Of a stretch of 64,000 nt of DNA, positions 3,349 through 48,669 are shown piece after piece (the first letter of the stretch is position 1; each line of letters begins with the position of its first letter). Position numbers and translations under genes: made by a program. The notes beneath the pieces were generated by a model. The model did no database searches and was not told the DNA's origin. It saw only the letters and a list, made by a program, of their open reading frames with translations. This DNA comes from Anatilimnocola sp. NA78 (lineage in GTDB: Bacteria > Planctomycetota > Planctomycetia > Pirellulales > Pirellulaceae), in contig NZ_CP187419.1 of assembly GCF_049819085.1 (NCBI RefSeq), positions 5,021,518 to 5,085,517 of the forward strand. Direction: 5' to 3'.

Positions 3349-5727
3349 CTACTTACCGCTGCGTTCCAAAATGCGGATGGTCATTTCGCCGATATCCGAC
3401 TGCCGCTCCGAAACCTTGCGAACTTCACCCTTCAGCACGTCGTCGAATTCACCTTCTGCTGGACGAGCCGACTCGAGCGATTCCGTACGGCGATTCACAC
3501 GAAGCTGAGCAGCCCGCAGCAACTTCAGTTCGGCCGAGTTAGGCAGCAAAGGCTCGTTGCCTCCACCACCACCGCCGCCGCCACCCTCGCCGCCGTCTTT
3601 TTGCTTCTGGGCTTTTTGCAACGATTCGATTAGTTCTTCGAGCGTGATCTCAATTTCTCGCTGCATCGTTTGCGTGTAACCGTCCGTGCGGAGGTTATCC
3701 GAAAGGAGCGTACCGACCGTGATCAAATCGTCTCGCAGTTGTTCGACCACATCCGGAAAGACCACGCTGGTACCATCATCGAGAATGATCTCAAGCGCCT
3801 GCTGAGCTTTGAAGGCCAGCGGGATGCGGTCGGACTGCCCGTCTTGCTTGATGATGGCCAGGCCTCGTTCATCTTCACCGAGCGACTTCAGCGTATTGCG
3901 ATCGCTGCGGGCCAGGTTGCCCATGTTGTCGACTTTCTTTTTGTCGATGACGAGCGTGCGAGCCGAAAGGTCTTTCTGCACCGCCAGCATCTCACGGAAG
4001 CGAGCCTCCAACTTGGCGAGCTTTTCGACCTGGGTCTCTTCGCGCAACTGAGCGAGCCGCTCTTCAATTTCCTTCAAGGCATCTTCGAGATCTTTGATCG
4101 CCTTGCCTTGCTTGCGCGAGGCATCGGAAGGGTCTTGCTTGCGAAGATCGCCGGACGCCTGCTCCATCGACTTTTGAGCTTGTTGAACCTTTTGCTGGCC
4201 GGGCTTTGGCTTACCACCTTCGCCACCGCCCGATTCACCGCCACCAGGCTGGCCACCGCCAGGCTGACCGCCACCTTCCCCACCCTTTTTCTCGTCCTGC
4301 TTCATCTTCTCCTGAATCTTGCCGGTTTGATTGGCAATATCGTCTTGCTTGCCGGCCATCTTCTCAAATGCTTCGGGCGGCAAGGAGGCAATGCGTTGCG
4401 ATTCCTTCTTCAGCTCTCCCAAGGCTCGCTGGAGATTTTCGAGCGCGGTCTGCTCGTCTTGCTGGGCCGCTTTCCCTTTCCCTTCTTGCAGTTTGCCTTC
4501 GGCCTGCTTTTGATTTTCGATGGCTTGCTTTAGCGGGCGCTCGCCAGCTTCCGGTGGTCGTTGTGGCTGAACCCCCGGTTGTCCGCCTCCCGATTGACCT
4601 TCACCGGGCTTACCTTCACCGGGCTTACCTTCTCCGGGCTTACCTTCTCCGGGCTTACCTTCTCCGGGCTTACCTTCTCCGGGCTTACCTTCTCCAGGCT
4701 TACCTTCTCCAGGCTTACCTTCACCGGGCTTACCTTCACCGGGCTTACCTTCTCCAGGCTTACCTTCACCGGGCTTACCTTCACCGGGCTTACCTTCACC
4801 GGGCTTACCTTCACCGGGCTTACCTTCACCGGGCTTACCTTCACCGGGCTTACCTTCACCGGGCTTACCTTCACCGGGCTTACCTTCACCGGGCTTACCT
4901 TCACCGGGCTTACCTTCACCGGGCTTACCTTCACCGGGCTTACCTTCACCGGGCTTACCTTCGGCGTTTCCCTCTGCGGCCGGTTTGTCGCCGGCTTCTT
5001 TGCCGATCTGTTCAGCAACCGATTGAGTTCCTTCGCGGACCTTGGCTTGTTCGCTGGCAACTTTGCCCAGGCCTTGGATGCCGCTTTCGCGAGCCGTTTC
5101 GGTATTTCCGATAACTCCCTTTTGCTGCTCGATCAGGGCTTCGACCGCTTTGATCTTGGCTTCGAGCGATTTCAGCGTGTCATCTTTATTGGCGACGCGA
5201 TCGGCCTCTCGCTTTTCGCCCTTTTGCTGCTGAATGACTTCTTCGATCTGCTTCTTCCATTCGCTGAGCTTTTCGAACTCCTCACGAATCTTGTCCTTGT
5301 CGTTTTTCTCATCCAGCAACAGGGCGAGCAGGTCTTTCAGATCGCCGAGAATCTTTTGTTCTTCCGCTTTGGCCGGATCGAGTTGCTGCTGATCGAGCAT
5401 GCGGGTGATGAGGGCCATCCGCCCCTTGATGCCCAAGGCCTGAGACTGCTTCAGCGCGTCGGCCAGTTTCTGGGCTCGCTCGGGTTCCGCTTTGGCGAGT
5501 GCCTGAGCCAGTTGATTGAACTTCCGTTCCAGGTCCTCCACCATTCGCTCGACGTGAGCCTGCCGGACACCAAGTGGCGTCGTTTTAAAGCTGTCTGCTT
5601 CACTCGGCTTCGTCTGCCCGCTGGCCACTCCCGCAAGCAACAGGCCCGCCGCTAACGCCGCCGTCATGCCCAAGCGACACCCTCGCGCGGTGAGGCAATT
5701 CCACATGCGGGAAGTCAAACGATCCAT
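3349..5727 (-). CDS. Secreted coiled-coil protein carrying a (GEGKP)n pentapeptide repeat array plus poly-Gly/Gly-Gln tracts
   Basis: ORF track 3349..6078. The most plausible start is MDRLTSRMW... with a following signal-like [15 protein letters not shown] (codon arithmetic gives 5727). About 24 GEGKP repeats, long charged coiled-coil segments, and a [15 protein letters not shown] tract. Confidence 0.55.
4597..4965. repeat. Intragenic 15-bp tandem repeat (gggcttaccttcacc, ~24 copies; minor ttcacc/ttctcc variants)
   Basis: Read directly in sequence lines 4561-4980. Encodes (GEGKP)n on the minus strand. Alternate-frame ORFs (HRAYL..., GLTFT..., KVSPV...) are artefacts of this repeat. Confidence 0.9.
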
Positions 5728-6017
5728 GAGCCAATCCTCCGGGGCAGCCTGCGAACCGACGCGCACGTCGCGCGGGAATTGCCAGGCAGCAACGCAACCG
5801 CAACGAGCACTGGCGTGGTAACTGTCCCTTAGTCCAGTTGGGGGGCAGTTTGGTTCAATCCACTCCAATATGACGGGCGAAACAGGCAGCCGCAAAAGCA
5901 AATGGCCAAATTTTCGCAAATTGGTCGGCGGGCGACGCTGAAGTGGGTGGGGCGAGCATGCCCAGAAGATGGTGCGAACGGCCGCGAGCGAAGCCCAGCT
6001 TTCCAATCCGTCCCTTT

Positions 6018-6158
6018 TGTCCAAAAACCCTCGCGATTGTTGGACGGGTGACTTCCTGTGGCCGCGGCTGCAACTCATTGCTGCGTCGTGCCTTGCTGTC
6101 TATTCGGCACATTTCCAAACACGCCTATCTGTCCAACAACCCCCTCAGTTTTTGGACA
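6018..6158. promoter_or_regulatory. Two copies of inverted repeat TGTCCAA-N15-TTGGAC(G/A) (6018-6046 and 6130-6158) upstream of pyrB
   Basis: Seen in sequence. Identical half-sites and identical 15-nt spacing, 112 bp apart, 350-480 bp upstream of the pyrB start, in a 600-bp non-coding leader. Confidence 0.35.
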
Positions 6159-18962: not shown

Positions 18963-19956
18963 AGCCTCATCCACCTTACAAAGATCGCCAGCTGCCAAGA
19001 AACGCACTCGTCGAGCCACGGGCAAACAGCCCAGAATCTCCCACGGGCAAACGACCATGATAGCGCCCGCAGGCTAAAGTTCGCAATGGGCGGCTGTGGT
19101 TGCTACGGTCCCGTTGGGAGCGACTAGCTGGGTCGCGCCATTAGCTCCGGGTGGCAGGCAACCAAGCCGTGACAGTCGGTTTGACCGCACTTCGCCCAGC
19201 CGCCAGCCCCGTCTTCGCTGGCTATGCCGGCAACTGCCGCCCCCCGGCAAATGCCTCGCTCAACCTGCGGGGGGGCGAAAGTCCAAGGTGGAGACCTTGC
19301 CTGCCAATCCACGTTGCTCTGATAACCATTTTTGATAACCTTTTCACGCATTTTTCTGTGATAACTATTTGCCGTAACTCTTAGCCCATCCGCCTGTTAT
19401 GCCAACCAATCCGCAAATCATGGCGATCCGCTGATAACCAATTGTTATCTTTGCCCAAGTTGCCCCAACCGCGCCAGCAAGTGGCCGGCACCGCCGGAGA
19501 TACTCACTCGTCGTTTCGCACCAACAGGCTTCTCCAGACCCACGCTGGGGATTGCCATCAACCTCCCGTGCATCGGAGTCGCACGAACCGCCCGGCAGCC
19601 GTCCCCCTGGCTCGTCACCTGCGCACAGCGAGCGCAGGCTCTTCTCAACGAAGAACATCTACGCATCACATAGACAATATTTGCTGTGCATTAATTTACT
19701 TCATTTTCTCGACATGACAATTCATTGTCAAGTGTTTTTCGCTTGCGCCGCCAGTCAACACAGCAGACGGCACGCAGAGACACCGATCTGGCGTATCGAA
19801 TCAGCGGCTGAAGCCGGGACGCTGCCTACGGCTGCCGCAAGCTGGCTGCTGGCTTTCAACTCCCCTCTGCGTAGGCTATTCTGGGGGCACAAACGATTGC
19901 CAATGAACATTTGCTATTGAACGAACGACGGCTAATTCCCGCTGGAGCCTGCCTCA

Positions 19957-37145: not shown

Positions 37146-37808
37146 CCGCCTGTTCCACACGTTTCGACTTACGTCGAATCGCAACGCCTTCGTGCAGAGT
37201 CGCCGCGCTTGCATCCCGCCAAGCCGCCCGATATAATCCCGACATTATCGCAATGTCGTTAGTTATTGTCAAGTGTTTATTATGGACCTCCTTGCACAAC
37301 AACCCCTGAACAGAATCGCATTACCCTGGCCCCTTCCTCTCTAGCCTCTAGCCCCGCTCCTCGCCAGATTCAATTCCAACAGTCGAGCCAGCAGTTCGTC
37401 GTCGGTGAGCGTGACGGGCCATCCGCAATCGGCCAAGATCAACTCTGCGGGCACGACTCACCGCGATTCCGCAATTGGATTGAGGAAACCCGAAGCGTGA
37501 GCGAGGAGCGCGCTGTGGAAGTCTTGAACTGAACTCCCCGGGGGTTCGTTTACAAATCGTTCGTGCGATGTTCGAGGGCAGAAACGAATGGTCTGGCCAC
37601 GACGACACTTCCGTGCGGCGAAGAGCACTCTCCTCGCTCACGCTTCGGGTTACCTGAACAGGCGAGCGTGACGCCCGTAGTCAAGTCGAACGAATTCCGC
37701 GGCCAGCTTGGTATGGCAACGACGAACTAGCATCCACCGCTGTTGTAAGGGGATGCTGTCGAAATTCAGCCTAACGAATCCCTCGCATTGCTTGAGGCGC
37801 ACGTCGCG

Positions 37809-39992: not shown

Positions 39993-41090
39993 ATGGCAAC
40001 GACGAACGAGCAACAACCTTTGTTGTATGCAGATGCTGTCGAAACGATTCCCGCTGACGAGTCGGAAGATATTCGGCTGACGATTGCGGCGATGCAGCGG
40101 GTGCTGGAGCAGACGTTTCAAAAGAGTGGTCAACGGCGGCGCGATGTCCATTTGAAGTCGCACGGCTGCGCACTCGGGACGATGCAAGTGCTGCCGAACT
40201 TGCCAGCGGAACTGGCCCAGGGCATCTTTGCTCGCGAGCAGACTTTCGAGGCGGTGGTGCGGTTCTCGAATGCGGCCAGTTCGCCCCAGCCTGACTATGT
40301 GCCCGATGGTCGTGGTCTGGCCGTGAAGGTTTTGGACGTCGGAGGCGAATCGCTCACCGCGGAAAGTGGCACTGGCGCGCAAGCGAGCACCGCGACGCAA
40401 GACTTCGTCATGGTCAATCATCCGGTCTTCATTGCCCGCAATGTGAAGGACTACTTGCGCATTCAGCAGACCATCGCCGACACCGGCGACAACAAGCTGG
40501 CGACGCTCAAAGATGCGTTGACGGGTGGCGATTGGAACCCGCTGAATTGGCACTGGCGCGAAGCACTCACGGCTGCCCAAATCGCCAGCAAGTTGCCCGC
40601 CCATCCCGCCAGTTTGACTTACTTCAGCATGGCGCCGATCCGCTTTGGCGATTACGTCGCCAAGTATCGCGTGCGGCCCGCCTGCGAGATTGCTGGCTCC
40701 ATTCTCGAACTCGTGAATCAACTCGGCCAGCAAGCCGATGCGTTTCGCTGGATGCTCGAAGAAACGCTGCGATCTCAGTACCTGCTGTTCGAATTTCAAA
40801 TTCAGCTGCGAACCTCAGCCGAGAAGATGCCCATCGAAGATGCGATGGTGGAATGGCCGGAGAGCGAATCGCACTATCGCACGGTGGCGTTGCTATTATT
40901 GCCCCGTCAGGAAATCGCGACGGCTGAGCAACGCGCGACCTGCGATCAGCTGATGTTCGATGTGTGGCACGCAGTCGCGGCGCACCGACCACTAGGGGGC
41001 ATCAACCGCCTGAGGCGCGAAGTCTATCCCATCTCTGCTGCCTGGCGACGCCAGACAGCGAGCGAACATCCGGCGAGCGAATCGCCCTAA
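39993..41090 (+). CDS. Catalase-related (mini-catalase/heme peroxidase-like) protein
   Basis: RDVHLKSHGCALG, AVVRFSNA and DGRGLAVKV match the catalase heme-core motifs; 365 aa, no C-terminal catalase extension. Confidence 0.6.
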   Translation: MATTNEQQPLLYADAVETIPADESEDIRLTIAAMQRVLEQTFQKSGQRRRDVHLKSHGCALGTMQVLPNLPAELAQGIFAREQTFEAVVRFSNAASSPQPDYVPDGRGLAVKVLDVGGESLTAESGTGAQASTATQDFVMVNHPVFIARNVKDYLRIQQTIADTGDNKLATLKDALTGGDWNPLNWHWREALTAAQIASKLPAHPASLTYFSMAPIRFGDYVAKYRVRPACEIAGSILELVNQLGQQADAFRWMLEETLRSQYLLFEFQIQLRTSAEKMPIEDAMVEWPESESHYRTVALLLLPRQEIATAEQRATCDQLMFDVWHAVAAHRPLGGINRLRREVYPISAAWRRQTASEHPASESP

Positions 41091-41569: not shown

Positions 41570-42373
41570 ATGAAGAATCGCACAAACCACTTGGCCACCA
41601 TGCTGGTCGCATTTCTTCTCGGCTGGTCGTCGTCGACGATCGCTGCAGATGCCGTTCCACTGCCGGCCAAGGAGAAGTTTCATCTCTTCCTGCTTGTGGG
41701 GCAGTCAAACATGGCGGGTCGCGGCAAGGTCGAAGCCGAAGACAAGCAGCCCGCGCCTCGCGTGTTGATGCTCAACAAAGAGGGCGACTGGGTCCCCGCC
41801 GTCGATCCACTTCACTTCGACAAGTCGGCCGCTGGTGTCGGCCTCGGCAAGACTTTTGGCAAGTTGATTGCCGAAGCAAATCCGGACGTCACCATCGGCC
41901 TGATTCCCTGTGCCGTCGGCGGCTCGCCCATCGACTCGTGGAAGCCGGGAGTTCTCTACAAGCCAACCAACAGCCATCCCTGGGACGATGCCATCCGTCG
42001 TGCCAAGCTGGCGCAAGAGAAGGGCGTGCTCAAGGGTATGCTCTGGCACCAAGGCGAGTCCGATTGCTCCGCCAAGGCTGCTCCTGCCTATGCTGAAAAA
42101 CTACAGTCGCTCGTGGCTGCCTTTCGTAAAGAGCTGAATGCTGACGTGCCGTTTCTCGTGGGTCAGCTTGGTCAGTTCGACGAGGTTCCTTGGGACGACA
42201 ACCGCAAGCTGGTCGACCAGGCCCATCGCGAGCTTCCCAAGCACGTCACCAACAGCGCCTTCGTTCCCTCCGACGGCCTGAAGCACAAAGGGGACAAAGT
42301 CCACTTCGACTCCGCCGGCCTGCGCGAGTTCGGCAAGCGGTACGCCGAGGCCTACCTCAAGCTTGCCAAGTAA
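41570..42373 (+). CDS. Sialate-O-acetylesterase-like (SASA/DUF303) carbohydrate esterase
   Basis: Signal peptide; GQSNMAGRG catalytic-Ser motif; 267 aa. Confidence 0.7.
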   Translation: MKNRTNHLATMLVAFLLGWSSSTIAADAVPLPAKEKFHLFLLVGQSNMAGRGKVEAEDKQPAPRVLMLNKEGDWVPAVDPLHFDKSAAGVGLGKTFGKLIAEANPDVTIGLIPCAVGGSPIDSWKPGVLYKPTNSHPWDDAIRRAKLAQEKGVLKGMLWHQGESDCSAKAAPAYAEKLQSLVAAFRKELNADVPFLVGQLGQFDEVPWDDNRKLVDQAHRELPKHVTNSAFVPSDGLKHKGDKVHFDSAGLREFGKRYAEAYLKLAK

Positions 42374-42439: not shown

Positions 42440-42960
42440 GTTTCCCCTCCGCTGAACAGTCCTCCGCATCCCTCTCGGCATTCCATTTTTGATAACTTTT
42501 TGCGCGAAAAATCGAAACCAACGCCTCGCTCTAACCCGTTCTGCTCCAAACTATTGCGATCACAACCGACCCAAAATCACCCGTTTCCTGATAACCATTT
42601 GATAACCACTCCTGCCCCTGTTCACTCCGCAGCCTGAACAGGCCCTAAACAGGGGGTCCAGTCTTCGTGGCGGCAGACCTCCTGGTCTGCCTTCCCCCGG
42701 CCTCTCCATTCTCTTCTGACGTCGCGGCAATCCTCCCGAACTTGCCTCGCTGAACAGTCCCTGTTCAGCGCTTCTGACAGCCCGTCTTGATAACTTTTTG
42801 CGCGAAAAATCGCATCCGCTTCCTCGCCCTAACCAGTTCTGCTTCAAGCCATTGCAATCAGAACCTCCCCAAAATCACCCGTTTCCCGATAACCGTTTGA
42901 TAACCACTCCTGCCCCCTGTGCGCTCCCTAGCCTGAACAGGCCCTAAACGGGTGGCTCAG
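42440..42960. repeat. Two tandem ~298-bp non-coding repeats, each with a TGAACAG/CTGTTCA hairpin, a TTGATAACTTTTTGCGCGAAAAATCG box and a CTGATAACC-N4-GATAACC box
   Basis: Period of 298 bp measured from gctgaacag (42451 / 42749) and ttgataac (42489 / 42787). ~85% identity between copies. Confidence 0.85.
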
Positions 42961-43251
42961 ACTGCCCCTCCTCGGTTAACCGAGCCGCTTGCGGCCGTTG
43001 AACTGGCAATCAAGTCAGTCCACACTTCTCCCGCGCAACCGCGTGGGTTAACCAAATACTGGGGCAGTAGGTCCAGGAACTCCGTACCTGACGACCTCGC
43101 TGAGTTGCAGTCAGGCGCGCGACGCTGGCCTTGCCCGACTCCGCCACTCGCTCCCATAAACCTTAAAATGTCCTTGACACTAAGTCAACAAATTGTAACA
43201 ATAATTCGGTGTGACACCGTCCGGCCAAAGTGCCCGGACCGCTCAACTCCG

Positions 43252-43722
43252 CTACTGAAGATCCCGAACAGAACTTTCGAAGCAATTGAGTTCAGCCTCA
43301 ATCACATCCCAAAATGAAGTCCCGCAAATGCTGAATGCGCCTCTTCCCTCGAAGTAGAAGTAGATTGGAAGCTCAACAAGAGGAGTGCCAGTTTCAAAAA
43401 ACATAAACTGTTCCCCCTGTCTCATTGCAAATACAAAAGCATTGTTGGGAATGGGCAACTTGCCATCTTCCCAGTTTGCCACCATCTCCTTCGCACGACT
43501 TTGCAATTCGACGAGCTGTTTGACTCGAAAATCGACATCGTCCCAAAAAGCTCCCGCGCTGTGCCCCACGGCCTTCAAGAACGAGCGGTAGTCTTCCGGC
43601 AAGGCAACCCCAAGCGTGGTTTCCAGCGAAGCTATCTCTACCTCGAATGCGCCGCAAATGGGTTGATGTTTCGCCAACCCGGCGGCAACAATTCGGTCAA
43701 CTAGCTTTCTCGAAGTGAGCAT
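43252..43722 (-). CDS. SUKH-1 (SMI1/KNR4) family immunity-type protein
   Basis: LPEDYRSFLKAVGHSAGAFWDD matches the SMI1/KNR4 core. Start placed at MLTSRK. The ORF-track N-terminal extension is read-through into the upstream repeat. Confidence 0.6.
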   Translation of the reverse strand: MLTSRKLVDRIVAAGLAKHQPICGAFEVEIASLETTLGVALPEDYRSFLKAVGHSAGAFWDDVDFRVKQLVELQSRAKEMVANWEDGKLPIPNNAFVFAMRQGEQFMFFETGTPLVELPIYFYFEGRGAFSICGTSFWDVIEAELNCFESSVRDLQ

Positions 43723-43786
43723 TGAACTCTTTCCAAACGCACTTTCTCTCGCTCGATGGTGCAGCAGCTTTTCGTAACTAAGTCCC

Positions 43787-43969
43787 CGCCAGGTGCCACT
43801 GGCTCGGCCAGTGCAGATTGGCCATCGCCGGGTTGCCTCCCAGCAGAAGAGAACCTCTTGCCTTTTTGCACAGGACAACCTCTTGGCAAAATGGCAAATC
43901 TCCAGCCGCCTTCGATCCAGCTACCCATTCGAGCCGGTCATTCACTGGCGAAGCCAGTGGCACCCGGCG
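43787..43969. repeat. MITE/attC-like 183-bp palindromic element, copy A (17-bp terminal inverted repeats CGCCAGGTGCCACTGGC / GCCAGTGGCACCCGGCG)
   Basis: Three >90% identical copies (A, B, C). Each sits 6-60 bp beyond the stop of a minus-strand gene. Confidence 0.8.
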
Positions 43970-44029
43970 CACGACCACGTCTCAAATCACAGGGACCGCG
44001 ACGCCCGCCCGGTCCGCTCCAATGGCTGG

Positions 44030-44524
44030 TTATGTGCCGGCCGACTGCCGCCACACCGGTTTGGCCGCACACCGCAAATCGACGCCGCGCCACTTCAACA
44101 GAGCGTAGAGAGCGCGGTCAATTAGCAACCTATCCGCCCAGATTGCGATCGAGCCCACCAAGGTCTGACCGTCGAGCGGATCGGCATAGACGACGACCTG
44201 AATCCGCCAGTCTTTGTAAACATCTATCAACAGCGCCCGCAGCTCATCGAGGAATGCCTGTGAAAAGCTGTCGATCGACGCCTCCAGATGCCGCGTGTGA
44301 TCCGGCCACCAGTCCCAGCCGATTTCCAGATGCTTCTCCACGTAGCTGGGCTCATACAAGCGATCCGCCACCGCCACGATTCGCTTGCGAAGCTCCTCGT
44401 CCCTCCGCACGTAATCCGCCTCTGCCTGTTCGCCTTTGAACTTCGCGATCCGCGCAGAGGCTTTGAACAGATCGTCAAAGACATCATCTTTCGCGGCTAT
44501 CGTGACCTCGCGGACGTCATTCAC
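44030..44524 (-). CDS. Hypothetical cassette protein (GTG start); last ~8 codons share nucleotide homology with the 3' end of the gene at 48145
   Basis: 164-aa acidic cytoplasmic protein. Its start abuts the duplicated recombinase-5' segment. Confidence 0.45.
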   Translation of the reverse strand: MNDVREVTIAAKDDVFDDLFKASARIAKFKGEQAEADYVRRDEELRKRIVAVADRLYEPSYVEKHLEIGWDWWPDHTRHLEASIDSFSQAFLDELRALLIDVYKDWRIQVVVYADPLDGQTLVGSIAIWADRLLIDRALYALLKWRGVDLRCAAKPVWRQSAGT

Positions 44525-44654
44525 AAGCGGCTCGCCTCCGGCAAATAACTTCTTATTCTACAGAATCGCCACGAGGCTTGATTCTTGATAACAGGAGTTT
44601 TATTCTGTCGAACGGGAAATAGATGTCAATCATTTCCTTCAGAATCTTCCAAGC

Positions 44655-44801
44655 TTGCGACGGAGCGGGAGGTGTTCGGTGGCCACAGAAACGACTCCAG
44701 TCAAGCCCGGCCCGAAGCTGTTGGAGCGAATGCGTCACAAGTTACGCGCCAAGCATTTGGCATTGAGCACCGAACGGAGTTACCTGCATTGGGCCGAGCG
44801 G
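44655..44801 (+). pseudogene. 5' fragment (first ~49 codons) of an integron-integrase-like tyrosine recombinase, copy 1, interrupted by repeat element X
   Basis: KLLERMRHKLRAKHLALSTERSYLHWAER matches the IntI/Xer N-terminal SAM-like domain motif (R.[22 protein letters not shown]). The reading frame then diverges into the inserted repeat. Confidence 0.6.
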
Positions 44802-45023
44802 CGGGTGGCATGGGTTCTACCCATGTCCTCCTTGGTCTTCTGAGGTAAGGATCCTCGCCAGCCGAGGCAAAACTCAACTCGATTTCACCAGCAACTGCAG
44901 TCCTGCGTTACCCCAGAACAGTTTGAGCTCCACCAAAACTGGCACTCGACGTCACACGAGAATTGCCAGCAGACATGGGTAAAACCCATGCCACCCAGAG
45001 ATGGCGAATGACCACGCATGCCA
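44801..45023. repeat. Second repeat family (element X, ~220 bp) with terminal inverted repeats GGTGGCATGGGTTnTACCCATG / CATGGGTAAAACCCATGCCACC, copy 1
   Basis: Near-identical copy at 46276-46499. Confidence 0.75.
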
Positions 45024-45029
45024 ACACCG

Positions 45030-45212
45030 CGCCAGGTGCCACTGGCTCGGCCAGTGCAGATTGGCTCTCGCTGGGTTGCCTCCCAGCGGAAGAGAACCTC
45101 TTGCCTCTTTGCACAGGGCAACGTCTTGGCAAAATGGCAAATCTCCAGCCGCCTTCGATCCAGCTACCCATTCGAGCCGGTCAGGCACTGGCGAAGCCAG
45201 TGGCACCCGGCG
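45030..45212. repeat. MITE/attC-like 183-bp element, copy B
   Basis: Same termini as copy A. 13 bp beyond the stop of the LRR gene. Confidence 0.8.
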
Positions 45213-45225
45213 TTGTAACCCATGC

Positions 45226-45981
45226 TCATTCCGCAATCAAAAAATCATTCTCCAATTGCCAGTCGCCATTAGAAGTGTGAACCACCTCTAATTCTGGGCG
45301 CAGCTGCCGCAGGCGATCAACACACGTTGATGATACGAGGGACCCGGAGAGATCCACTCGTCTCAATCGAGTCGATGCAATCAGTTTCTCGATTATAGCA
45401 TCTGACACCTGAGTTAACGACACATCAAAGGAATGCAGGATCGGCAATCTTAAGAGACAAAGTGCGACATTATCATCCATTTTAGTCCGCGAACAGTCAA
45501 GCTCCTCTATGCCAGAAAAAATACTTACAAGTTCCCTTGCGAAATCAACGTCAACTTGTTCTCGCGAAAGTGCAATCCTTCGCACATTTCTCCAGCCTCT
45601 CATCGATTCGACAGCTGAAGGCGGCAGTTCTTTTAAAAATATATATTGAGCTGACGTAGATCTTGGCATCATCGCGTTGCACGCTCCGCCTTTGCAGTCC
45701 ACGATCACCGTCCTCAGCGAGCGCAACTCCTCAATTGCCCGAAAGTCGCTCATTGCTCCGCAGTCAATCCTGGCAAGTGCAGGATGAGCGGTGGGCAGCC
45801 CAATCCATGAGGGAAATTCAAGTGAAGATTGCTCATAGAGTTCGAGGCTGCATCCATTTTCCTTGAGCTCCCGCTCAGCTGACAGCAAGTCACGATGAAA
45901 TCTCAGTCGCTCGCTGATACAAAAGGCTACAAGAGCTGCGACAACCATCAAGAGCAATAATGCGCGGATCGAGAATGTCAT
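45226..45981 (-). CDS. Leucine-rich-repeat (RNI-like) membrane-anchored protein; low-GC, likely horizontally acquired
   Basis: Start at MTFSIRALLLLMVVAALVAFC (TM), then L-rich repeats. The DNA of 45.3-46.1 kb is visibly AT-richer than its surroundings. Confidence 0.5.
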   Translation of the reverse strand: MTFSIRALLLLMVVAALVAFCISERLRFHRDLLSAERELKENGCSLELYEQSSLEFPSWIGLPTAHPALARIDCGAMSDFRAIEELRSLRTVIVDCKGGACNAMMPRSTSAQYIFLKELPPSAVESMRGWRNVRRIALSREQVDVDFARELVSIFSGIEELDCSRTKMDDNVALCLLRLPILHSFDVSLTQVSDAIIEKLIASTRLRRVDLSGSLVSSTCVDRLRQLRPELEVVHTSNGDWQLENDFLIAE

Positions 45982-46275
45982 TTTTAGTCTACTTAACGGA
46001 GATTCGCGCTGGTGTATATTGGCCAGTGTGCTTTTTGTAGTGACAGCCCGTTTGCCGATTGCGCCTGTTTGACTCATCCTAGCTAAACCCCCAGCTATCC
46101 TGAGAATTCCATTGCGCAAATCTGTTTACTATAGTAATGTTGTCTAAGTGCCCTTGACTAATCCCCACAGGCCGCAACACTTGGTGCATAGGATCACTTG
46201 AGTAGGTTTGATCTCCGTTGGCGTCCGATATTGTGATGCTTTGTAAAATCAAGTGCGAGCCGAACCAAAATCCTG

Positions 46276-46499
46276 CGGCGGGTGGCATGGGTTGTACCCA
46301 TGTTCTTCTTGGTCTTCTGAGGTAAGGATCCTTGCCAGCCAAGGCAAAACTCAACTCGATTTCACCAGCAACTGCAGCGCGGCGTTACCTCAGAACGGTT
46401 TGAGCTCCACCAAAACTGGCACGCGACGGTCCGCGAGAGTTGCCAGCAAACATGGGTAAAACCCATGCCACCCAGAGATGGCGAATGACCACGCATGCC
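46276..46499. repeat. Element X, copy 2
   Basis: Same TIRs as copy 1. 32 bp beyond the stop of the 46532 gene. Confidence 0.75.
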
Positions 46500-46531
46500 A
46501 CCCCGCCGCCGCAGTCAGGTGCAACTGATTG

Positions 46532-47206
46532 TTATCCCGCCTTTTCAATGCGTGCTTTTACCCATTCAACAAACGTGGCCGGATCCATGTTACCCGCAAC
46601 ACGGAACTCACAAGGCTCCTCGGAGTCCCAGTGAGCTTCGGGCGTCGGAAATTCGCCTTGTCTGTCTTCGCCCCAATACATCGTCGTCTCTTCGTAGTCA
46701 TTGATCCTGAAAGCCGAACCTTTATTGCCTTCAAAGATGTACATCCCCGACACCTTGAATTCGTCGGCTATGCCCGGTTGACCAAAAGCACGAACGAGCG
46801 AGCGAGGGCTGACATGCAACATGGTCCCGAACCCATTCAAATCCTTCGTGGTGTCGGAGACAAGATCAAATGTACTGCTGTCGTCAGCGGGCGCAACGAC
46901 CGGCTCTTGTTTCTTACGAAAACCGGGTTTGCCCCTGAAAAACTCATGTTTGCTCACCCAGACGATCTGGCCGAAAACATCGTACTCTTCACCGTCAAGT
47001 TGAAAAGAGCCAATGGTGTTGATTCGACCTTCCGTTTGACTGCTGAACGTGAGCTTCAGATTCGTTGCATCTGCGGGCATGTTGTTCACAAACGCCGTGG
47101 AAGCGAACTGCATGAAGTCGGCAAAACTTGGCGGAGTAGTTTTGCGCCAACATGACTTGTAGGATTCGACGTCAATCAACGCTTCAAGTTGTTCTTTGAC
47201 GGTCAT
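46532..47206 (-). CDS. Hypothetical cassette protein (224 aa, acidic)
   Basis: ATG start 12 nt from the second copy of the recombinase-5' segment. No recognisable domain. Confidence 0.45.
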   Translation of the reverse strand: MTVKEQLEALIDVESYKSCWRKTTPPSFADFMQFASTAFVNNMPADATNLKLTFSSQTEGRINTIGSFQLDGEEYDVFGQIVWVSKHEFFRGKPGFRKKQEPVVAPADDSSTFDLVSDTTKDLNGFGTMLHVSPRSLVRAFGQPGIADEFKVSGMYIFEGNKGSAFRINDYEETTMYWGEDRQGEFPTPEAHWDSEEPCEFRVAGNMDPATFVEWVKARIEKAG

Positions 47207-47328
47207 GTCTTTAGCGGGATAACTTCTTATTCTACAGAATCGCCACGAGGCTTGATTCTTGATAACAGGAGTTTTATTCTGTCGAACGGGAAATAGAAGT
47301 CAATCATTTCCTTCAGAATCTTCCAAGC

Positions 47329-47484
47329 TTGCGACGGAGCGGGAGGTGTTCGGTGGCTACAGAAACGACTCCAGTCAAGCCCGGCCCGAAGCTCTTGGAG
47401 CGAATGCGTGACAAGTTGCGTGCCAAGCATTTGGCATTGAGCACCGAACGGAGTTACCTGCATTGGGCCGAGCGGTTCATACGC
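47329..47484 (+). pseudogene. 5' fragment of integron-integrase-like tyrosine recombinase, copy 2, truncated exactly at the left end of MITE-like copy C
   Basis: ...LRAKHLALSTERSYLHWAERFIR then the frame enters cgccaggtgccactggc. 258 bp (47219-47477) is ~97% identical to 44545-44800. Confidence 0.6.
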
Positions 47485-47664
47485 CAGGTGCCACTGGCTC
47501 GGCCAGTGCAGATTGGCCATCGCCGGGTTGCCTCCCAGCAGAAGTGAACCTCTTGCCTTTTTGCACAGGGCAACATCTTGGCAAAATGGCAAATCTCCAG
47601 CCGCCTTCGATCCCACTACCCATTCGAGCCGGTCAGGCACTGGCGAAGCCAGTGGCAACCGGCG
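47482..47664. repeat. MITE/attC-like 183-bp element, copy C
   Basis: Same termini as copies A and B. Ends 30 bp beyond the stop of the gene at 47695. Confidence 0.8.
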
Positions 47665-47694
47665 CCCCTGTCGATAGGGAAGGCCATAGAGAGG

Positions 47695-48060
47695 TTAGGC
47701 CGACTTCCTTTGCAACCACTCCTGATACTGTCTCCAATCATCGTCAATCGCCGCTTGCTGCACGGTTTCTGAAACATCGCCAAATTCAATCTCGCGCATG
47801 TATCTCGGATATTCCGCCTCCGCAAGGACATCTCGGTAGTCTTGGATCGCGGTCTGCGTTTCGTCCAGAAGTCGAGCAAGATCACCGTTTACGAGCTTGA
47901 GGATGGCGAGTCGCACGCGCGGGTTGGGGCGATTCCAATCCTGCTTTCCGAACTCTTCGAGAATCGAAAGCGCCAGTGCAGCCTGAGCATCGCCAAAGTC
48001 GCGGAGCGCGATCCTCTTTACGTCTTCGTAAGTCACATCTGGGATGGGTTGTTCCGCCAT
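47695..48060 (-). CDS. Hypothetical small cassette protein (121 aa)
   Basis: Acidic, helical, no known domain. Immunity-protein-like context. Confidence 0.4.
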   Translation of the reverse strand: MAEQPIPDVTYEDVKRIALRDFGDAQAALALSILEEFGKQDWNRPNPRVRLAILKLVNGDLARLLDETQTAIQDYRDVLAEAEYPRYMREIEFGDVSETVQQAAIDDDWRQYQEWLQRKSA

Positions 48061-48144
48061 AAGCGTGTCGGCCTAACGACCAAGTTCACCTGCTGCGGCG
48101 GCGGTGAGACGTTGAACTCTGAAAAAGCCGTAATGCCGCCGCAG

Positions 48145-48669
48145 TCAGGTGCAACGGCTGGTTATGGCCGGCCGGTTGCCGTCGAACTCCACATGGAAGC
48201 CTACCGGTAGAAGCCAATACGGAGCGAATCGCGCGTCATGAATCGTCAGCTCGTACAGCGACTGAAAATGCAAGTTCGCGGGTTCATTCACATCCAAGGG
48301 ATCGTCGGCGACTCCAACGAACCAACCCGATTTGTTGCCTTCAAGCTGATCGAGTCGCTCCATGAATGCACGCGGCGACCCCGGCATGTAAGACCTGCTG
48401 ATGAGCGCCGCATGCCACAGCGCACAGCGCTCCGGCTCAACCCGCTGTTTGGCCAACACAGCCGACTGTTCCGCGTCGATACGTTCCACTGGCCCGAAAT
48501 CTCGAGTGAACGACGCCATGGCCAGGAAATCAAGTGTCTCCAAGTCCAATTGGCCGTTCTCGACGATGGCCTGAAAGATGAACCAGCCGTACTCGACTGA
48601 CTCGCCGTGCTTAACGGTGCGCGTGGAGAGGAAGTCGAGGACATTCGATCGTAGAGCACTTGAGGCCAT
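48145..48669 (-). CDS. Hypothetical cassette protein (174 aa)
   Basis: Its 3' end shares the ggctggttatgGccggccgGTtgcc segment with the 3' end of the 44030 gene. A hairpin, cacctgctgcggcggcgg ... ccgccgcagtcaggtg, lies 3' of its stop. Confidence 0.4.
   Translation of the reverse strand: MASSALRSNVLDFLSTRTVKHGESVEYGWFIFQAIVENGQLDLETLDFLAMASFTRDFGPVERIDAEQSAVLAKQRVEPERCALWHAALISRSYMPGSPRAFMERLDQLEGNKSGWFVGVADDPLDVNEPANLHFQSLYELTIHDARFAPYWLLPVGFHVEFDGNRPAITSRCT

Follow-up and report, generated by a model that had tools for sequence, protein, structure and literature searches.

Analysis of a 64,000-nt stretch of DNA (the window) of Anatilimnocola aquadivae NA78T (genome 7,974,895 bp, PMC12992917) revealed that the TGATAAC(C) boxes clustered between dapA and floA belong to a non-coding element of approximately 170 nt, of which the window holds three copies and metagenome contigs a further eight. 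The repeat family is real: its boxes are selectively conserved at fixed spacing, no RNA or coding signal accompanies them, and orthologous sites of relatives gain or lose the element; constraint on the boxes and on the distances between them acts at the level of the DNA. As the best explanation, to which we assign a probability of about 0.55, the boxes are taken to be the conserved parts of an intergenic repeat, dispersed and mosaic, of the genus Anatilimnocola, which would be mobile or recombination-associated or bound by a nucleoid-associated protein; the boxes would act as recognition sites of a DNA-binding protein rather than as operators of the flanking genes.

The element in the window and in metagenome copies

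An earlier note on this DNA had described TGATAAC(C) boxes as over-represented, and both the positions that it gave and the enrichment held on re-reading of the sequence, with 14 TGATAAC matches compared to 2.56 ± 1.31 expected, a number reached in none of 100 dinucleotide-preserving shuffles. Nine of the 14 are confined to 19320-19439, 42490-42606 and 42788-42904, while the five matches beyond the three element copies (four with one duplication collapsed) are near the background expectation, and the entire excess is due to three copies of the one element. The claim that all boxes are non-coding had to be given up, as three matches fall in open reading frames (ORFs; Table 1) and the excess is restricted to the element copies. 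All 14 matches lie on the plus strand, a bias which results from element orientation and duplication; independent single matches are too few for a strand test. Likewise, the boxes that the earlier note had placed in 5’ modules of recombinase genes (44586 and 47260) are one occurrence doubled by the 257-nt repeat D3 (98% identical), with flanks TTGATAACAGGAG that do not match the box consensus and no match of the element profile, and the TTGATAAC in these 44.5/47.2 kb modules is a duplicated chance match unrelated to the element. The recombinase label itself found no support, as Pfam and NCBIfam gave no recombinase domain in the ORFs of 43-49 kb.

The sequence at 19300-19470 aligns without gaps to the core of each of two 298-bp tandem units (A and B) and is their diverged homologue. 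A profile made from this three-way alignment matched only 19301-19469, 42458-42624 and 42759-42922 in the window (E = 1e-36 to 1e-42), and unit B is 87% identical to unit A over the direct repeat D5. In all three copies TTGATAACYTTTT is followed after exactly 88 nt by GATAACCNNTTG, corresponding to 99 bp from box1 to box2a. The dapA-floA spacer, previously put at about 900 bp, measures 994 bp, since DapA homologues are 295 aa long and the dapA start is therefore 18962. Furthermore, the doublets once thought to share one arrangement in this spacer and in the tandem units are different parts of the element: 19320/19333, with 13-bp spacing, is box0/box1, and 42589/42600, with 11-bp spacing, is box2a/box2b. 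The spacer counterpart of the latter is the box at 19432 with the inverted box at 19444, an inverted pair standing in place of the usual direct doublet.

Eleven copies make up the family set, three from the window and eight from metagenome contigs (numbered with L here, as are other contigs and genomes compared); the latter eight were picked by an exact pattern over box1 and box2a, slightly stricter than the pattern used for the genome scan. The stricter pattern matched 11 contigs, three of which are low in GC and lack other element features. The remaining eight come from one sample, have 55-59% GC, carry one pattern-found element each, in an intergenic position, and are Anatilimnocola-like, with planctomycete genes such as those for DUF1559 proteins and, in L021, a BtaA 95% identical to that of A. 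aggregata. On L017 a second, tandem unit was recovered solely by the profile. Two low-GC (31-33%) metagenome contigs, L018 (2099-2211) and L023 (1583-1695), hold TTGATAACCTTTTG twice, 99 nt apart; these pairs, which lack other element features, are due to chance or to some other, unrelated repeat.

Among the eight metagenome copies, the mean pairwise identity at positions outside the search pattern was 0.93 for the rest of box2b (ATAACCA) and 0.88 for the two T’s before box1, compared to 0.40 for the stretch between the boxes and 0.34-0.41 for the element flanks. Across the whole family, box1 (TTTTGATAACYTTTT in the window copies) is conserved in 11 of 11 copies and the direct doublet of box2a and box2b, with its 11-bp spacing, in ten of 11. 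The distance from box1 to box2a is 99, 100 or 101 bp, i.e., the spacers are 88, 89 or 90 nt long, which is incompatible with a reading frame. The 10-bp box consensus is TTTGATAACC; box1 reads TTTTGATAACCTTTT with a short GC-rich run after it, and the head-to-tail doublet reads yTGATAACCrTTTGATAACCAc with 11-bp phasing. Other parts are present in some copies only, namely box0 (GAYAACC), 13-14 bp before box1 in about half of them (e.g., L017, L021 and L022), and an inverted GGTTAT(C) approximately 20 nt before box2a in five (L013-L016 and L019), and the mid-element stretch has weak CTAAC and TTGCG motifs only. In subfamily 1 (units A and B, L017 and L022), CTGAACAG/CTGTTCAG palindromes flank both sides, and this subfamily can form 298-bp tandem units. 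Additionally, four metagenome elements have a conserved module of ACCAAATTGCCAAAGAAC...AATTGTAC...GTGACTAGTCTGGTCAC at about 200 nt on their downstream side, and the module occurs once alone; the window does not contain it.

Table 1 Positions of the element copies, their boxes and associated features in the window, and of one module on metagenome contigs.
Feature	Position	Strand	Basis or remark
Element copy 1 (diverged), dapA-floA spacer	19301..19469	+	three-copy profile, E = 1.7e-36
Element copy 1, 11-copy profile match	19311-19456	+	E = 2.3e-23
Copy 1 box0 TGATAACC, 13 bp 5’ of box1	19320..19327	+	motif count
Copy 1 box1 with T tracts, ATTTTTGATAACCTTTT	19328..19344	+	motif count
Copy 1 extra box TGATAACT, unique to copy 1	19359..19366	+	motif count
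Copy 1 box2a TGATAACC, then inverted box GATAACCAATTGTTATC	19432..19449	+	box1-to-box2a distance 99 bp, equal to that of units A and B
Two tandem 298-bp units	42440..43000	+	repeats D5 and D10 recurring at 298-299 bp
Element copy 2, core of tandem unit A	42458..42624	+	profile, E = 2.8e-42; within direct repeats D5 and D10
Unit A box1 TTGATAACTTTTT	42489..42501	+	motif count
Unit A box2a/box2b doublet TGATAACCATTTGATAACC, 11-bp period	42589..42607	+	minus strand matches WATCAANNNNTTR
Element copy 3, core of tandem unit B	42759..42922	+	profile, E = 3.2e-39
Unit B box1 TTGATAACTTTTT	42787..42799	+	motif count
Unit B box2a/box2b doublet CGATAACCGTTTGATAACC, 11-bp period	42887..42905	+	minus strand matches WATCAANNNNTTR
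Palindrome CGCTGAACAG-tcc-CTGTTCAGCG, 5’ of unit B	42748..42770	.	inverted repeat I5, 100% complementary
Palindrome CCTGTTCA-N10-TGAACAGG, 3’ of unit A doublet	42617..42642	.	sequence reading, folding
TGATAAC matches, dapA-floA spacer	19320, 19333, 19359, 19432	+	motif count
Inverted GTTATC, dapA-floA spacer	19444-19449	inverted box	sequence reading
TGATAAC matches, tandem unit A	42490, 42589, 42600	+	motif count
TGATAAC matches, tandem unit B	42788, 42898; plus CGATAACC at 42888	+	motif count
TGATAAC matches, repeat D3 copies	44586, 47260	+	motif count
TGATAAC matches within ORFs	2279, 20613 (in floA), 59355	+	motif count
Promoter aimed into copy 1	19731-19703	-	sigma70-like
SASA esterase gene, product 100% identical to an Anatilimnocola sp. 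NA78 protein	41570-42373
ACCAAATTGCCAAAGAAC...AATTGTAC...GTGACTAGTCTGGTCAC module	L014 4935; L015 1194; L016 1081 and 6621; L019 2201

The two palindromes of the tandem units recur within the subfamily. The CGCTGAACAG-tcc-CTGTTCAGCG palindrome has a degenerate copy in unit A (42450-42459), and its motif also precedes the elements of L017 and L022; the CCTGTTCA-N10-TGAACAGG palindrome exists in a mutated version in unit B (~42916-42941), and its sequence is kept in L017 and L022, with no compensatory changes seen. CTGAACAG occurs eight times in the window compared to 2.3 expected, five of these being palindrome arms in or around the tandem units (42452-42940); two further occurrences lie in the spacer at 37.3-37.7 kb (37306 and 37654). 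Immediately past unit B, at 42974-43053, a 20-nt inverted repeat (GGTTAACCGAGCCGCTTGCG / CGCAACCGCGTGGGTTAACC, 40-nt loop) contains GGTTAACC, the palindromic form of the TAACC core.

Turnover at orthologous loci and a possible box-swapped variant

The genes beside the elements encode DapA, FloA, a SASA esterase, an EAL protein, ImpE, a PUA methyltransferase, BtaA, a DUF1559 protein and a peroxiredoxin-like protein, differing from copy to copy and having no common function. The spacers that hold elements are divergent (19.3 kb copy) as well as convergent (units A and B, L016), and the neighbour gene on the box1 side is co-directional with the element at about half of the loci and divergent at the rest; the element is followed by a gene on the same strand in L021 and L015.

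Comparison with relatives showed that the element comes and goes at conserved loci. At dapA, it is absent in L001, L002 and L003, in which DapA is 92-95% identical. The closest of them (L001, DapA 95%) has a floA-dapA spacer of 310 bp without the element and shares only the 130 nt adjacent to dapA, holding a conserved promoter-like TTGCGA-18-TATCAT; L003 has an FKBP gene at this position, and A. floriformis has other neighbours. At the SASA esterase locus, the tandem units are absent in A. aggregata and in a closer metagenome relative (L025/L026). The distance from the SASA esterase gene to a ThuA-like gene is 1.7 kb in A. aggregata and 8.7 kb in NA78, which makes the tandem units the left border of a strain-specific island (42.4-51 kb), and the whole of this stretch is missing in A. 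aggregata. At btaA, L021 carries the element, relatives of 90% identity have no element and a different neighbour, and A. aggregata has a different element. At all three comparable sites (dapA, SASA and btaA), the conserved anchor gene lies on the box1 side and the variable DNA on the box2 side.

The island contains a stretch of low GC at third codon positions (43252-48669) with immunity-type genes, SUKH (43252-43878, minus strand) and Imm33-like (48145-48669, minus strand), and a mosaic of repeats, in which D2 (43784, 45027 and 47479) forms the common 5’ coding part of three plus-strand ORFs, D3 lies at 44545 and 47219, and D4 at 44798 and 46275. Repeats are also found elsewhere in the window. 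Approximately 25 tandem copies of a 15-nt unit (4484-5037) lie inside a minus-strand ORF of 909 aa (3349-6078), which has a weak Extensin-like Pfam match and probably encodes a proline-rich pentapeptide-repeat protein. Moreover, a 52-nt direct repeat starting with ATGGCAACGACGAAC occurs at 37713-37764 and 39993-40044 (85% identical), the second copy being at the start of a 365-aa ORF (39993-41090).

In A. aggregata (CP036274), the spacer upstream of btaA has ten TTTCC boxes, all on the same strand of a 1-kb stretch (L027 4000-5000, minus strand), and part of it forms the different element. The order of this element is ATTTCC (more fully AAAAATTTCC), 40 nt, CTAACCCGTT, 58 nt and ATTTCCggaatGTTTCCAC (more fully ATTTCCGGAATGTTTCCAC), with CCTGTTCAA...TTGAACAGG before and TTTGAACAGG after, and that of NA78 unit A is GATAAC (more fully TTTTTGATAAC), 40 nt, CTAACCCGTT, 59 nt and GATAACCatttGATAACCAC (more fully GATAACCATTTGATAACCAC), with the same kind of TGAACAG palindromes. 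This correspondence is suggestive, not proof, of a box-swapped variant with the same geometry. A scaffold that is kept while its box is exchanged, if real, is what would be expected of cognate protein-site pairs.

Candidate explanations for the boxes

The earlier note had proposed the boxes as a candidate motif of one regulator. Of this proposal, we retain that they behave like the sites of one sequence-specific DNA-binding protein, and we set aside that they are independent operators of a regulon. Such a protein would recognise the consensus TTTGATAACC, and at the doublet two protomers or domains may be placed next to each other on the same helix face, because 11 bp is about one helical turn; a further contact would lie about 100 bp away. 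As leads, the doublet comes nearest in geometry to winged-helix response-regulator sites, and the combination of single site, spacer and doublet with tolerance of inverted boxes to the arm sites of tyrosine integrases. Taken together, the turnover, the position at synteny breaks and junctions and the box swap favour a mobile, recombination-associated or nucleoid-protein-bound repeat over a regulon operator.

Several points weigh against this preferred explanation. Mobility would be proved by terminal inverted repeats, by target-site duplications or by a clean empty site, none of which was found among the copies and relatives compared. The conservation of box1 and box2a in the metagenome copies arises partly by construction of the search pattern, leaving box2b, the T tracts, box0 and the second unit of L017 as the pattern-independent features. 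No planctomycete matched the layout pattern in the species-representative genomes, the scan of which matched only an Anaerolineae box cluster and two singletons, so either the family is narrow or most copies are off-pattern. The gapless identity between the TTTCC element and the GATAACC element is just 0.30, about 2 sd over the null, and the resemblance thus concerns geometry and a common 10-mer, not general sequence. A sigma70-like promoter is aimed into the element from the box2 side at four loci (the 19.3 kb copy, L013, L021 and L022), and the element may have a role in box2-side transcripts, or act on, block or end them. Finally, the binder of the boxes is itself putative.

A fairly unlikely alternative is that the boxes are recombination or transposition sites of a mobile island, namely arm-type or subterminal sites for an integrase or transposase encoded elsewhere, in which case the element would mark one end of the variable DNA or its integration platform. 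The element lies at synteny breaks with the variable DNA always on the box2 side, and its single site, spacer and tandem doublet resemble the attP arms of the lambda family and the ends of Mu (its left end in particular) and Tn7-type elements. Box variants with the same geometry fit cognate recombinase-site pairs, and the inverted boxes of some copies (19444; GGTTAT(C) in L013-L016 and L019) would be tolerable for independently binding domains. However, the element differs from those systems in that a recombinase gene, inverted repeats of the core type and a second, inverted end were not found, and it occurs as many solitary copies per genome. Although the box layout is compatible with a lambda-type att site, searches of the window island and of the eight contigs recovered neither an integrase nor a transposase, no core inverted repeat was seen, and the far edge of the 42.4-51 kb island has no inverted box cluster. 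Plasmid, phage and viral collections likewise gave no similarity and no pattern match. Two related candidates were rejected: a miniature inverted-repeat transposable element, as no inverted repeat bounds any copy and the relatives give no clean empty site, and integron attC/attI sites, as the boxes are direct repeats, TGATAAC departs from RYYYAAC (RYYYAAC...GTTRRRY being expected) and no integrase was found.

That the boxes are operators through which one transcription factor, e.g., an OmpR/PhoB-type response regulator, controls dapA, floA and the other neighbours is unlikely. The comparators are Pho boxes, the CtrA site TTAA-N7-TTAAC and the cyanobacterial PyTTAAPyPy(T/A) repeats, and the element core (A/T)TAACC is similar to CtrA and SphR half-sites. 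Like OmpR, PhoB and CtrA sites, the element has direct repeats of 7-8 bp with an 11-bp period and A/T-rich linkers; the head-to-tail arrangement characteristic of OmpR/PhoB-type sites (6-8 bp, 10-11-bp period) is present in the ten copies with a direct doublet. The divergent promoter region around the 19.3 kb copy and the same-strand genes in L021 and L015 would also suit an operator. However, the sites lie within a repeat, in convergent spacers between gene ends (units A and B, L016) as well as divergent ones, a second cluster is found 100 bp off, and no fixed position relative to a promoter was found, as no -10 element stands at a fixed distance from any box. Moreover, the neighbours have no function in common, and the relatives with DapA 92-95% identical do without the element and keep only the proximal TTGCGA-18-TATCAT site.

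Readings of the boxes themselves as promoters were rejected. Read as sigma70 promoters, with TTGATA as -35, they yield no consistent -10, and for sigma28 (GCCGATAA), sigma54 or extracytoplasmic function (ECF) promoters the partner element is missing by eye. No TAnnnT hexamer stands at a constant distance after box1 or box2b, and promoter-like sites lie at varying distance and are mostly antisense. Two strong sigma70-like minus-strand promoters in the window (19703-19737 and 37247-37285) have the motif ATTGTCAAGTGTTT in common, being TTGACA-17-GAAAAT and TTGACA-17-GATAAT, and the first of them overlaps the palindrome TGACAATTCATTGTCA; a similar plus-strand site, TTGACA-17-AACAAT, is located at 43174-43202.

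It is very unlikely that the element is a small RNA gene or transcribed leader in which the boxes are read as RNA. The four inward promoters and the conserved hairpins of the subfamily-1 units would fit such a role, but the promoters lie at 90-330 nt from the element, seven of the 11 copies have none, and the hairpin is invariant, without compensatory change. RNAalifold predicted no pairs for the core on the plus strand and only a trivial 7-pair stem within the doublet on the minus strand, and the folding energy of unit A was no better than that of shuffles (z = -0.71). Rfam gave no match in the whole window at gathering scores, none at E ≤ 5 in 42.3-43.3 kb and, at E ≤ 5 in 18.95-19.96 kb, a single chance-level match, far below threshold and outside the element; a tRNA and tmRNA search of the window was also negative.

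A DnaA-box cluster, i.e., an oriC-, datA- or DARS-like site, is less credible still. The layout pattern also matched a cluster conserved in Anaerolineae, in which over ten TTATCAACA boxes have the 8-mer TTGATAAC in common, and an 11-bp phased array in one orientation resembles the low-affinity DnaA arrays of E. coli oriC. However, the window has only three 9-mers with at most one mismatch to TTATCCACA compared to 5.7 expected, none of them near the boxes, which differ at two to four positions. The conserved part of the boxes is GGTTATCA, the ACA part is not conserved, DnaA-box positions 7-9 vary at box2a, there are many copies per genome, on contigs with unrelated flanks, and neither dnaA nor dnaN is among the annotated neighbours. 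The Anaerolineae cluster is present in six Anaerolineae/Chloroflexota genomes (L007-L012, e.g., L010 3400-3800), where a PHP-domain gene and a cNMP-binding gene flank it, and its more than ten GTTATCAACAG (TTATCAACA) boxes point both ways; it is probably itself a DnaA-box cluster or oriC, and we treat it as unrelated to the element. With Fur the boxes have, as with DnaA, the GATAA/TTATC core in common, but a Fur box (19-bp GATAATGATAATCATTATC, or 7-1-7 TGATAAT-N-ATTATCA) was rejected, since they are direct repeats 11 or 13-14 bp apart of GATAACC, the hexamer ends in C instead of T, and the sole inverted pair (19433-19449) has a 5-bp spacer. The earlier note was right in holding that the boxes are neither Fur boxes nor DnaA boxes.

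Chance amplification of a functionless AT-rich word by local duplication, favoured in that five of the 14 matches (unit B and D3) are products of duplication, we regard as refuted, because the eight copies from other genomes conserve box positions outside the search pattern and the diverged 19.3 kb copy keeps identical box spacing despite a mean pairwise inter-box identity of 0.39 across the family.

Relation to known repeats and implications

In enterobacteria, bacterial interspersed mosaic elements (BIME) and repetitive IHF-binding palindromic elements (RIP, or RIB) are mosaic intergenic repeats in which repetitive extragenic palindromic (REP) sequences flank an IHF site. The element resembles them in being dispersed, non-coding, mosaic and intergenic, often situated past gene ends and sometimes in tandem, and one subfamily has palindromic units (CTGAACAG/CTGTTCAG) around a protein-site module. 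Even the IHF consensus WATCAANNNNTTR is matched by the doublet, on its minus strand, a match that an 11-bp repeat of TTATCAA yields automatically. It differs in that its conserved part consists of identical direct-repeat boxes at fixed spacing, not of REP hairpins, which most copies lack. Membership in REP, BIME or RIP was rejected, as palindromes occur only in subfamily 1 (A, B, L017 and L022), with none in the core, and no GTAG/CGTC tag was seen; among the scanned proteins there was no REP-associated (RAYT-type) or Y1 transposase. Overall, no described family fits the element, which we take as a new dispersed mosaic intergenic repeat with putative protein-site modules, and nothing of relevance emerged from a literature search on TGATAAC motifs and on the DnaA boxes and repeats of planctomycetes.

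A bolder and improbable possibility is that Pirellulaceae have an undescribed system of recombination or integration for which the elements serve as modular ‘junction’ sites. A trans-encoded protein would then recognise, on a scaffold with unchanging geometry, the box type, which is TTTCC in A. aggregata and GATAACC in NA78 and a metagenome Anatilimnocola, and variable DNA would be gained or exchanged on the box2 side. Such a system would explain the position at the island edge, the polymorphism among close relatives and the swap of boxes without a change of layout.

Planctomycetes have long intergenic regions, and, to our knowledge, hardly anything has been described of their cis-elements, global DNA-binding proteins and mobile DNA. 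The element supplies a defined 10-bp box, TTTGATAACC, with a strict layout and a marker of variable junctions in Anatilimnocola genomes, and the box sequence TTTGATAACCGTTTGATAACCAC is a ready probe for the putative binder. If it is merely a selfish repeat, it would still be useful in annotation, since it is not a dapA/floA regulon motif; should the swapped boxes stand for cognate protein-site pairs, the variant would point to a new recombination or chromosome-organising system.

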